A DNA stretch of 23,188 bases from a virus (Duplodnaviria; Heunggongvirae; Uroviricota; Caudoviricetes), in IMG/VR virus record IMGVR_UViG_2728369607_000006. The stretch is one strand, 5' to 3'. Position numbers and translations under genes: made by a program. The first letter of the stretch is position 1; each line of letters starts with the position of its first letter. Shown in pieces: positions 4,248-10,326 of this stretch. The notes under the pieces are model-generated. The model saw only the letters and a program-made list of their open reading frames with translations. It did not search any database and was not told where the DNA came from.

Positions 4248-5547
4248 TCTCCCGCATATTGCCAGCATGGCTTTTAATGAGCCGCTGATGCTTGAACCCG
4301 CCTATGCGCGGGTTTTCTTTTGTGCGCTTGCAGGCCAGCTTGGGATCAGTCGCCTGACGGATGCAGTATCCGGCGACAGCCTGACTGCCGGAGAGGCACC
4401 CGCGGCGCTGGCGTTATCCGGTGATGATGACGGACCACGACAGGCCCGCAGTTATCAGGTCATGAACGGCATCGCCGTGCTGCCGGTGTCCGGTACGCTG
4501 GTCAGCCGGACGCGGGCGCTGCAGCCGTATTCGGGAATGACCGGTTACAACGGCATTATCGCCCGTCTGCAACAGGCTGCCAGCGATCCGATGGTGGACG
4601 GCATTCTGCTGGATATGGACACACCGGGCGGGATGGTGGCGGGAGCATTTGACTGTGCTGACATCATCGCCCGTGTGCGTGACATAAAGCCGGTATGGGC
4701 GCTGGCCAACGACATGAACTGCAGTGCAGGTCAGCTGCTTGCCAGCGCCGCCTCCCGGCGTCTGGTCACGCAGACCGCCCGGACAGGCTCCATCGGCGTC
4801 ATGATGGCTCACAGTAATTACGGCGCTGCCCTGGAGAAACAGGGCGTGGAAATCACGCTGATTTACAGCGGCAGCCATAAGGTGGATGGCAACCCCTACA
4901 GCCATCTACCGGGTGATGTCCGGGAGACACTGCAGTCCCGGATGGATGCAACCCGCCGGATGTTTGCGCAGAAGGTGTCGGCATATACCGGCCTGTCCGT
5001 GCAGGCTGTGCTGGATACCGAGGCTGCAGTGTACAGCGGTCAGGAGGCCATTGATGCCGGACTGGCTGATGAACTTGTTAACAGTACCGATGCGATCACC
5101 GTCATGCGTGATGCACTGGATGCACGTAAATCCCGTCTCTCAGGAGGGCGAATGACCAAAGAGACTCAATCAACAACTGTTTCAGCCACTGCTTCGCAGG
5201 CTGACGTTACTGACGTGGTGCAAGCGACGGAGGGCGAAAACGCCAGCGCGGCGCAGCCGGACGTGAACGCGCAGATCACCGCTGCGGTTGCGGCAGAAAA
5301 CAGCCGCATTATGGGGATCCTCAACTGTGAGGAAGCTCACGGACGCGAAGAACAGGCACGTGTGCTGGCCGAAACCCCCGGTATGACCGTGGAAACGGCC
5401 CGCCGCATTCTGGCAGCTGCACCACAGAGTGCACAGGCGCGCAGTGACACTGCGCTGGATCGTCTGATGCAGGGGGCACCGGCACCACTGGCTGCAGGTA
5501 ACCCGGCATCTGATGCCGTTAACGATTTGCTGAACACACCAGTGTAA
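4228..5547 (+). CDS. C: Capsid assembly protease / scaffold gpC (ClpP-like S49 family)
   Basis: GTG at 4228 gives (M)TAELRNLPHIASMAFNEPLMLEP..., 439 aa matching lambda gpC; the ORF track extends upstream to 4093 but the lambda-equivalent start is the GTG overlapping the B 3' end. Confidence 0.9.
4942..5547 (+). CDS. nu3: Scaffolding protein Nu3 (in-frame internal start within C)
   Basis: In-frame ATG at 4942 (MDATRRMFAQKVSAY...) sharing the C stop; corresponds to lambda Nu3 nested in C. Confidence 0.7.
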   Translation: MDATRRMFAQKVSAYTGLSVQAVLDTEAAVYSGQEAIDAGLADELVNSTDAITVMRDALDARKSRLSGGRMTKETQSTTVSATASQADVTDVVQATEGENASAAQPDVNAQITAAVAAENSRIMGILNCEEAHGREEQARVLAETPGMTVETARRILAAAPQSAQARSDTALDRLMQGAPAPLAAGNPASDAVNDLLNTPV

Positions 5548-5556
5548 GGGATGTTT

Positions 5557-5889
5557 ATGACGAGCAAAGAAACCTTTACCCATTACCAGCCGCTGGGCAA
5601 CAGTGACCCGGCACATACGGCAACCGCGCCCGGCGGATTGAGTGCGAAAGCGCCTGCAATGACCCCGCTGATGCTGGACACCTCCACCCGTAAGCTGGTT
5701 GCGTGGGATGGCACCACCGACGGTACTGCCGTTGGCATTCTGGCGGTTGATGCTGACCAGAACAGCACCACGCTGACGTTCTACAAGTCCGGCACGTTCC
5801 GTTATGAGGATGTGCTCTGGCCGGAGGCTGCCAGCGACGAGACGAAAAAACGGACCGCGTTTGCCGGAACGGCAATCAGCATCGTTTAA
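5557..5889 (+). CDS. D: Head decoration protein gpD
   Basis: 110 aa [27 protein letters not shown]...AISIV, near-identical to lambda gpD; the ORF track starts 2 codons upstream (5551). Confidence 0.93.
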
Positions 5890-5920
5890 CCTGACCCTTC
5901 ATCACTACTTCATCACTAAA

Positions 5921-5942
5921 GGCCGCCTGTGCGGCTTTTTTT
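5921..5942 (+). terminator. D-E intergenic GC hairpin followed by T-run (terminator-like or mRNA-stabilising stem-loop)
   Basis: GCCGC-CTGT-GCGGC stem-loop followed by TTTTTTT; preceded by a short direct repeat (CATCACTACTTCATCACT). Confidence 0.5.
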
Positions 5943-5955
5943 ACGGGATTTTTTT

Positions 5956-6940
5956 ATGTCGATGTACACAACCGCCCAGCTGCTGGCGGCAAATGAGCAG
6001 AAATTTAAGTTTGATCCGCTGTTTCTGCGTCTCTTTTTCCGTGAGAGCTATCCCTTCACCACGGAGAAAGTCTATCTCTCACAAATTCCGGGACTGGTAA
6101 ACATGGCGCTGTACGTTTCGCCGATTGTTTCCGGTGAGGTTATCCGTTCCCGTGGCGGATCCACCTCTGAATTTACGCCGGGATATGTCAAACCCAAGCA
6201 TGAGGTGAATCCGCAGATGACCCTGCGTCGCCTGCCGGATGAAGATCCGCAGAATCTGGCGGACCCGGCTTACCGCCGCCGTCGCATCATCATGCAGAAC
6301 ATGCGAGACGAAGAGCTGGCCATTGCTCAGGTCGAAGAGATGCAGGCAGTTTCTGCTGTGCTTAAGGGCAAATACACCATGACCGGTGAAGCCTTCGATC
6401 CGGTTGTCCGGTGGTACGGAGTGGAGCAAGCGTGACAAGTCCACGTATGACCCGACCGACGATATCGAAGCCTATGCGCTGAACGCCAGCGGCGTGGTGA
6501 ATATCATCGTGTTTGATCCGAAAGGCTGGGCGCTGTTCCGTTCCTTCAAAGCCGTCAAGGAGAAGCTGGATACCCGTCGCGGCTCTAATTCCGAGCTGGA
6601 GACAGCGGTAAAAGACCTGGGCGAAGCGGTGTCCTATAAGGGGATGTATGGCGATACGGCGATCGTCGTGTATTCCGGACAGTACGTGGAAAACGACGTC
6701 AAAAAGAACTTCCTGCCGGACAACACGATGGTGCTGGGGAACACTCAGGCACGCGGTCTGCGCACCTATGGCTGCATTCAGGATGCGGACGCACAGCGCG
6801 AAGGTATTAACGCCTCTGCCCGCTACCCGAAAAACTGGGTGACCACCGGCGATCCGGCGCGTGAGTTCACCATGATTCAGTCAGCACCGCTGATGCTGCT
6901 GGCTGATCCTGATGCGTTCGTGTCCGTACAACTGGCGTAA
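5956..6940 (+). pseudogene. E: Major capsid protein gene E, disrupted by an out-of-frame 41-bp internal deletion
   Basis: N-terminal 150 codons (5956-6405, MSMYTTAQLL...GEAFDPV) are in frame 1 and run into a TGA at 6433-6435. The C-terminal 177 codons (SGGTEWSKRDK...VSVQLA) resume at 6407 in frame 2 and end at 6940. Lambda residues 151-164 (EVDMGRSEENNITQ, recalled) are missing; 985 bp here versus 1026 bp in lambda. Confidence 0.8.
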
Positions 6941-6942
6941 TC

Positions 6943-6968
6943 ATGGCCCTTCGGGGCCATTTTCTCTC
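6943..6968 (+). terminator. E-FI intergenic hairpin with TTCG tetraloop and T-rich tail
   Basis: ATGGCCC-TTCG-GGGCCAT perfect 7-bp stem followed by TTTCTCTCT. Confidence 0.4.
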
Positions 6969-6981
6969 TGTGGAGGAGTCC

Positions 6982-7377
6982 ATGACGAAAGATGAACTGA
7001 TTGCCCGTCTTCAGGTGCTGGGTGAGCAACTGAACCGTGATGTCAGCCTGACGGGGACGAAAGAAGAACTGGTGCTCCGTGTGGCAGAGCTGGAAGAGGA
7101 GCTTGATGACACGGATGACGCTGCCGGTCAGGACACATCTGTCAGCCCGGAAAATGCGCTGACCGGACATGAAAATGAGGTGGTATCAGCGCAGCCGGAT
7201 ACCGTGATTGATACGGCTGCTCTGGTCACGGTCGTGGCACTGGTGACGCTGCATACTGATGCACTTCACGCCACGCGGGATGAGCCTGTGGCATTTGTGC
7301 TGCCGGGAACGGCGTTTCGTGTCTCTGCCGGTGTGGCAGCCGAAATGACAGAACATGGCCTGGCCAGAATGCAATAA
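6982..7377 (+). CDS. FI: Head assembly / DNA packaging protein gpFI
   Basis: MTKDELIARLQVLGEQLNRDVSLTGTKEEL... (131 aa) matches lambda gpFI; GGAGGA Shine-Dalgarno at 6973-6978. The ORF track start at 6943 is an upstream over-extension. Confidence 0.9.
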   Translation: MTKDELIARLQVLGEQLNRDVSLTGTKEELVLRVAELEEELDDTDDAAGQDTSVSPENALTGHENEVVSAQPDTVIDTAALVTVVALVTLHTDALHATRDEPVAFVLPGTAFRVSAGVAAEMTEHGLARMQ

Positions 7378-9487: not shown

Positions 9488-9910
9488 ATGTTCCTGAAAA
9501 CCGAATCATTTGAATATAACGGTGTGAGCGTCACGCTTTCTGAACTGTCAGCCCTGCAGCGAATTGAGCATCTCGCCCTGCTGAAACGACAGGCAGAACA
9601 GGCGGGATCCAGTCTCAATCGACAGGTGAGCGTGGAAGATCTCGTCAGAACCGGTGCTTTTCTGGTGGCGATGTCCCTGTGGCATAGCCATCCGCAGAAG
9701 ACAAAGATGCCGTCCATGAATGAAGCCGTTAAACAAATTGAGCAGGAAGTGCTTACCACCTGGCCCACAGAGGCAATTGCTCAGGCTGAAAATGTGGTAA
9801 TGCGTCTGTCCGGTATGTCTGAGTTTGTTGTGAATGATGCACCTGAACAGGCAGATGACGCCGGGCCAGCAGAGCCTGTTTCTGCGGGAAAGTGTTCGAC
9901 GGTGAGCTGA
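9488..9910 (+). CDS. G: Tail assembly chaperone gpG
   Basis: 140 aa MFLKTESFEYNGVSVTLSELSALQRIEHL..., lambda gpG; contains the slippery site near its 3' end. Confidence 0.9.
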   Translation: MFLKTESFEYNGVSVTLSELSALQRIEHLALLKRQAEQAGSSLNRQVSVEDLVRTGAFLVAMSLWHSHPQKTKMPSMNEAVKQIEQEVLTTWPTEAIAQAENVVMRLSGMSEFVVNDAPEQADDAGPAEPVSAGKCSTVS

Positions 9911-10326
9911 GTTTTGCCCTGAAACTGGCGCGTGAGATGGGGCGACCCGACTGGCGCGCCATGCTTGCCGGGATGTCATCCACGGAGTATGCCGACTGGC
10001 ACCGCTTTTACAGTACCCATTATTTTCATGATGTTCTGCTGGATATGCACTTTTCCGGGCTGACGTACACCGTACTCAGCCTGTTTTTCAGCGATCCGGA
10101 TATGCATCCGCTGGATTTCAGTCTGCTGAACCGGCGCGAGGCTGACGAAGAGCCTGAAGATGATGTGCTGATGCAGAAAGCGGCAGGGCTTGCCGGAGGC
10201 GTCCGCTTTGGTCCGGACGGGAATGAAGTTATCCCCGCTTCCCCGGATGTGGCGGACATGACGGAGGATGACGTAATGCTGATGACAGTATCAGAAGGGA
10301 TCGCAGGAGGAGTCCGGTATGGCTGA
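9488..10326 (+). CDS. T: Tail assembly chaperone gpG-T fusion produced by programmed -1 ribosomal frameshift
   Basis: The -1 frame ORF 9892-10326 (FDGELSFALKLAREMGRPDW...) has no independent start context and continues from G at the G GGA AAG heptamer (9886-9892); its stop overlaps the H start. Same arrangement as lambda G/GT. Confidence 0.8.
9886..9892 (+). promoter_or_regulatory. Programmed -1 frameshift slippery heptamer G GGA AAG (G to G-T)
   Basis: GGGAAAG read as G|GGA|AAG in the G frame, 6 codons before the G stop; the -1 frame is open from here to 10326. Confidence 0.8.

Follow-up and report, generated by a model that had tools for sequence, protein, structure and literature searches.

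The gene for the major capsid protein gpE is broken by a 41-bp loss in the stretch of DNA analysed here (23,188 nucleotides in all, hereafter the window), and on balance we attribute this gap to an error that entered the draft assembly of NCCP15656 during closure of gaps in the prophage region, rather than to a mutation of the bacterium. The window lies in contig ATLX01000007.1 (GCA_001466815.1) of E. coli NCCP15656 and comprises a complete lambda-type late operon, with the ATG of Nu1 at its start and the stop codon of tfa at its end. The features on which the argument turns are the following:

1–23188, + strand: late operon with the genes Nu1, A, W, B, C/Nu3, D, E, FI, FII, Z, U, V, G, T, H, M, L, K, I, J, lom, stf and tfa
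5557–5889, + strand: D, head decoration protein, intact, with the rare variant T69N
5897–5918, + strand: two tandem copies of CTTCATCACTA in the D–E spacer, unique to this assembly
5908–6405, + strand: 498-bp block with the duplication at its left end and the deletion at its right, same sequence as in NCCP15655
5956–6405, + strand: E codons 1–150 (gpE), from the sequence, the list of open reading frames, DNA and protein alignments and Pfam
6405–6407, + strand: deletion junction, with 41 bp missing between T6405 and T6407, from DNA alignments
6406–6435, + strand: out-of-frame tail VRWYGVEQA and TGA stop (6433–6435), from the sequence and the list of open reading frames
6407–6940, + strand: E codons 165–341 in a shifted frame, from the sequence, the list of open reading frames, alignments and Pfam
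6982–7377, + strand: FI, intact, the first gene 3' of the broken E

The frame that opens at the ATG at 5956 encodes gpE residues 1–150 (ending in GEAFDPV, to 6405) and then runs through VRWYGVEQA into the TGA at 6433–6435, giving a truncated product of 159 aa by direct reading of the sequence and by the list of open reading frames. The other frame picks up from 6407 with SGGTEWSKRDK and continues to the normal C-terminus VSVQLA at 6940. In DNA alignments E contains a single 41-bp gap relative to lambda (NC_001416), NCCP15655 and OkiPb01685; the missing bases read GAGGTGGATATGGGCCGCAGTGCGGCGAACAACATCACACA in the closest relatives, and every relative that was aligned has them. At the protein level codons 151–164 are gone (EVDMGRSEENNITQ in lambda, EVDMGRSAANNITQ in the closest relatives), the loss amounting to these codons minus one base. 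The base G6406 can be assigned to either flank, which leaves the exact placement uncertain by this one G and makes the microhomology 1 bp. The first-pass annotation had described just this lesion: codons 1–150 up to 6405 and 165–341 from 6407 in another frame, codons 151–164 replaced by a single base with a net loss of 41 bp, and a stop after nine missense codons. The sequence, the open reading frames and the alignments confirm it in each of these respects. As a difference in the sequence itself, the gap is deterministic and does not depend on statistics.

Both halves of the broken gene are recognisably gpE. The protein encoded by codons 1–150 is the same as in the intact E of NCCP15655, both fragments are 97–98% identical to lambda gpE in protein alignments, and each matches the Pfam family PF03864 (Phage_cap_E), the N-terminal fragment with E = 6.7e-27 over profile positions 1–148 and the C-terminal fragment with E = 1.8e-35 over positions 158–328. 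Membership of the gpE family (PF03864, HK97 fold) is therefore plain from the sequence, and the head genes follow the lambda order, C/Nu3–D–E–FI, as seen from the genes annotated in the nearest relative and the Pfam families on the contig. What the gene lacks is one uninterrupted open reading frame of ~341 aa, the frame breaking at 6405/6407. The downstream fragment lacks an ATG, and its only in-frame start candidate, GTG 6386, is not preceded by anything resembling a Shine-Dalgarno sequence; judged from these signals, independent translation of this fragment is unlikely.

That both fragments retain perfect gpE sequence is the one point in favour of a functional split gene, in which frameshifting would restore a gpE 14 residues shorter or the two pieces would act together as a split capsid protein. 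We give this reading next to no credence. Not one of the ~4,400 E copies in complete genomes is arranged in this way, the two-frame arrangement is not kept even in the sister strain NCCP15655, and the downstream fragment is without a start signal; the absence of any conservation effectively refutes the idea. A programmed frameshift would call for a slippery sequence and a conserved two-frame arrangement, and neither was found: there is no slippery heptamer at 6397–6435, unlike at the G–T overlap. There, where G (9488–9910) runs into T (9892–10326), the sequence GGGAAAG is present at 9886–9892; it is the slippery heptamer of the programmed -1 frameshift that yields gpGT in lambda, and it is conserved here.

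The rest of the operon is in good order. The 23 annotated genes of OkiPb01685 (NZ_AP042523.1), the closest complete genome, were mapped onto the window, and all 22 genes besides E are full length and free of internal stops, which bears out the earlier statement that the late operon is otherwise complete. Only two amino-acid changes separate these genes from those of OkiPb01685, D2E in Nu1 and T69N in gpD. Relative to lambda itself, the first 12 kb are 97.4% identical.

The broken allele appears to be confined to a single sequence. Searched as exact proteins among ~15 billion, the two E fragments were found on one contig only, and no copy was present in Logan or ENA. A 45-mer spanning the junction (6384–6428) had no match in 5,426 complete E. 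coli genomes, 50,697 phage records or 72,556 plasmids. A control 45-mer taken 60 bp upstream in E matched at 4,418 places in 3,140 of the complete E. coli genomes, showing that the search works. Complete genomes that carry E have a mean of ~1.4 copies and a maximum of 5. Exact-match scans likewise returned no junction 40-mer from GTDB species representatives and IMG/VR and no junction 24-mer from JGI metagenome contigs. A pseudogene would be expected to share its lesion with related strains or lineages; here NCCP15655 is intact and the junction is unmatched.

It was the rare T69N variant of gpD, found on four contigs only, that led us to the sister strain, since one of the four is ATLW01000004.1 of NCCP15655. 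[quoted passage not shown] In NCCP15655 E is intact at 341 aa; the protein covers PF03864 profile positions 1–328 and matches the structure 7VI9 over residues 1–341 (E = 4e-225) as well as 7SJ5. The same prophage is present in OkiPb01685 (NZ_AP042523.1, 626382–649599), and in both strains E encodes 341 aa and the D–E spacer contains the 11-mer CTTCATCACTA once. In lambda E occupies the same place between D and FI (NC_001416, 6135–7160), and the allele in the window differs in being without the 41 bp and in stopping after 159 aa.

The 11-mer provides a second indel. Lambda, NCCP15655 and OkiPb01685 each have it once, the window has it twice in tandem, and the junction of this duplication was found in none of the 5,426 complete E. 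coli genomes. The duplication lies 498 bp upstream of the 41-bp deletion, just 5' of a conserved hairpin. Eight variable alignment columns fall within the 41 bp plus the 10 bp that follow, and the duplication is 4–6 bp from two polymorphic sites. We considered whether the indels sit at clusters of polymorphism, as branch points in an assembly graph would, and set this aside as weak support, since the whole gene is densely polymorphic.

Over the comparable 16.5 kb the two sister assemblies differ by 7 SNPs, the 11-bp duplication and the 41-bp deletion. The SNPs (window positions 2008, 2029, 2502, 2536, 2595, 4680 and 4689) are without exception synonymous and upstream of the junction, and form two patches, one at 2008–2595 covering the end of A and W and one at 4680–4689 in C; the 9,454 bp past the junction are identical. 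The comparison with OkiPb01685 gives a similar picture, with 17 SNPs and the same two indels all within the first 6.4 kb and 100% identity over the 16,783 bp downstream of the junction. At four of the five SNPs in 2008–2595 NCCP15656 has a haplotype common in other lambda-like prophages. Being synonymous and in part of a common haplotype, the SNPs between the sisters are natural alleles and not random base-calling errors, and the patch at 2008–2595 suggests, from its sequence, that a second set of lambda-like head genes either took part in gene conversion or contributed mixed-in reads. The CLC assembler calls A when votes are tied, and all 7 SNPs have A in one of the two assemblies. Tie-breaking as the sole cause of the SNPs was rejected, again on the grounds that all 7 are synonymous and that four of the five in 2008–2595 belong to a common natural haplotype.

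The way in which the source genome was built is central to how the two indels are to be read. NCCP15656 is a clinical O8:H49 STEC isolate from Korea carrying stx1a and stx2a, sequenced on an Illumina GAIIx from a 500-bp paired-end library (27.86 million reads, 235x, 4.93 Mb; PMC4436796), figures from which a mean read length of ~41.5 nt can be worked out. It was assembled with CLC Genomics Workbench 5.1 and scaffolded with SSPACE, after which gaps were filled both automatically, by IMAGE, and by hand, leaving 15 contigs (PMC4436796). This is very few for a polylysogenic STEC with such reads, which implies that many repeat-associated gaps were closed computationally. IMAGE disregards the estimated gap size, and in an E. 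coli benchmark its use took the number of indel errors from 4 to 17 and that of SNP errors from 12 to 40 (PMC3446322). Error-prone closure of gaps from short reads is thus documented for the method behind this draft, and the anomalies seen here are both clustered locally and unique to one assembly. The deposited record itself holds no Ns, no other marks of joins and no annotation of closed gaps. At its 5' side ATLX01000007.1 ends ~675 bp before Nu1, between bor and ylcI-like genes (contig positions 1–675, upstream of the window), where the NCCP15655 contig runs through. A contig end at this place indicates that the lysis/bor region is repeated elsewhere in the NCCP15656 genome, consistent with several lambdoid prophages.

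From these observations we infer that both indels would be join errors. With reads of ~42 nt, contigs would have broken in the D–E region, and a piece of ~500 bp (5908–6405) would have been assembled separately and pasted in as gap fill. At its left join an 11-bp overlap would have been left untrimmed, producing the tandem duplication at 5897–5918, and at its right join a gap of 41 bp would have been closed at zero length, producing the apparent deletion at 6405/6406. The real strain would then have an intact 341-aa E like its sister, in a prophage with a complete late operon. Several lines of evidence argue for this reading. The two indels occur in a single gap-filled draft and nowhere else, and they lie at the edge of the sole region in which the sister assemblies disagree. 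An untrimmed contig overlap would leave exactly an 11-bp tandem copy, a small gap closed as zero length would leave a blunt 41-bp loss, and faulty joins arise as neighbouring pairs by construction, which fits two indels so close together. The patches of SNPs look as expected if reads had been mixed, or sequence exchanged, with another lambda-like copy. Such copies are common in E. coli; in NCCP15656 itself the synonymous haplotype patch is the only sign of a second set of lambda-like head genes. Finally, a microhomology of 1 bp is atypical of deletions by slippage, and we count this towards an artefact as well.

Some considerations weigh against an assembly error. A de novo assembler would faithfully keep a genuine 41-bp deletion, natural slippage could plausibly yield an 11-bp tandem duplication as well, and prophage genes do decay through small deletions, other truncated E alleles being present in E. 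coli (for example protein P0008, described below). These points lead to the principal rival reading, which we consider possible but less likely: that E codons 151–164 were really lost and the frame shifted by a 41-bp deletion after NCCP15656 and NCCP15655 had split. Apart from resting on the sequence as deposited, a genuine deletion would agree with the finding that the damage is limited to E and spares the 22 other late genes, as a first and recent lesion predicts, and with the intact sister, which would make the event very young. It would also strike an essential shell protein, 98% identical to lambda gpE (HK97 fold; 7VI9, 7SJ5), and the natural occurrence of truncated E alleles such as P0008 speaks for it as well. 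That lambda E is essential is known from its amber mutants. Against it stand the confinement of the deletion to one gap-filled draft made from ~42-nt reads, its position at the boundary of the sole region where the sister assemblies disagree, the 1-bp microhomology, and above all the need for a second independent and unique indel 498 bp away despite an ANIb of 99.98–99.99. By a rough estimate, which assumes tens of indels between the two genomes, the chance of a second independent real indel within ~500 bp is ~1%.

If the deletion were real, E would encode a 159-aa fragment with the N-arm, the E-loop, the long helix and 9 missense residues, without the A-domain or the C-terminal half of the HK97 fold. 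The prophage could still induce, replicate, lyse its host and make tails, and expression of the downstream genes should persist under Q-antiterminated late transcription; the prophage would make no capsids unless another lambdoid prophage supplied gpE. The first-pass annotation had gone from the broken frame to an inactivated E, to the absence of any capsid, and to a defective prophage that was recently inactivated. It had also named an assembly artefact as something to rule out, which is the reading we consider more likely. Of this, the molecular lesion stands as deposited. The step from it to the organism is unsafe when taken from one gap-filled draft with a second unique indel, and the statement that no capsid can be built overlooks possible complementation by another lambda-like prophage in a polylysogenic STEC. 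Recent inactivation would follow from the intact E of the near-clonal NCCP15655 if the sequence were true, but here it is probably in error. A further elaboration of the genuine deletion, to which we attach very little probability, is that the 159-aa fragment, expressed late under Q, would poison the capsids of co-resident or superinfecting lambda-like phages, including Stx phages with lambda-type heads, or that the prophage, now headless, would be setting out on the way to becoming a tail-only, F-pyocin-like producer.

A faulty join might also conceal a larger event at E, namely an IS insertion, a rearrangement or a mixed culture, with the flanks abutted and the insert dropped together with the 41 bp. 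The protein P0008 (from E. coli O74, on 5 contigs) offers a parallel, as it follows gpE residues 1–153 with the unrelated peptide RGLFRRRSLRYCTCF and its break falls within the same 14-codon stretch; short reads do not span repeated elements, and manual gap filling was used for NCCP15656. We nevertheless regard a hidden insert as improbable. No insert sequence is present, an IS would give a target-site duplication and not a 41-bp loss, and the coincidence of positions is based on a single example. The foreign tail of P0008 was not encoded in any of the loci fetched. A hot spot for contig breaks near codons 150–153 was also considered from other partial E proteins (P0007, P0009 and P0025) and rejected, the lengths of the partial proteins being broadly spread in both clusters.

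The favoured reading, two join errors around a pasted block, can be compared with known errors of gap closure. Errors of the IMAGE type consist of small indels at closed gaps (PMC3446322), and in the present case a block of ~500 bp in a repeat-prone prophage has a unique indel at either end. Defective lambdoid prophages such as DLP12 of K-12 and those of the O157 pool resemble the window in being lambda-type and damaged in a gene essential for morphogenesis. The classical examples differ from the present case in having many deletions and IS insertions that are lineage-wide, whereas here there is one small lesion, in one draft, which may not be real. If it is an artefact, the finding serves as a warning only: frameshifted prophage 'pseudogenes' in early, heavily gap-filled short-read drafts should neither be taken for biology nor enter surveys of prophage decay. 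If it is real, it adds one more case of a well-known process, in which a prophage is inactivated when an essential head gene suffers a small deletion; its one notable point would be its age, the event postdating the divergence of two nearly clonal clinical O8:H49 STEC isolates. On both readings the finding is an ordinary one; it needs no new mechanism and opens no new question.

Two further observations concern the surroundings of E and of the prophage. On each side of E (5918–5942 and 6943–6960) lies a GC-rich hairpin with a T run after it, and both hairpins are kept in lambda. The hairpin before E consists of AAAGGCCGC-CUGU-GCGGCUUU plus U7 and folds with -12 to -13 kcal/mol, and the one after E reads ATGGCCC-TTCG-GGGCCAT; from their sequence they are probably mRNA-stabilising or attenuating structures. 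In relatives the prophage lies beside ompT-envY-ybcH-nfrA-nfrB, with essD, rrrD, rzpD, bor and nohD upstream (locus L001, 26191–29218; locus L020, 13629–23072). We take a flank of ompT-envY-ybcH-nfrA together with essD/rrrD/rzpD/nohD to be the DLP12 locus of K-12, and the prophage looks like a full-length counterpart of that cryptic prophage.
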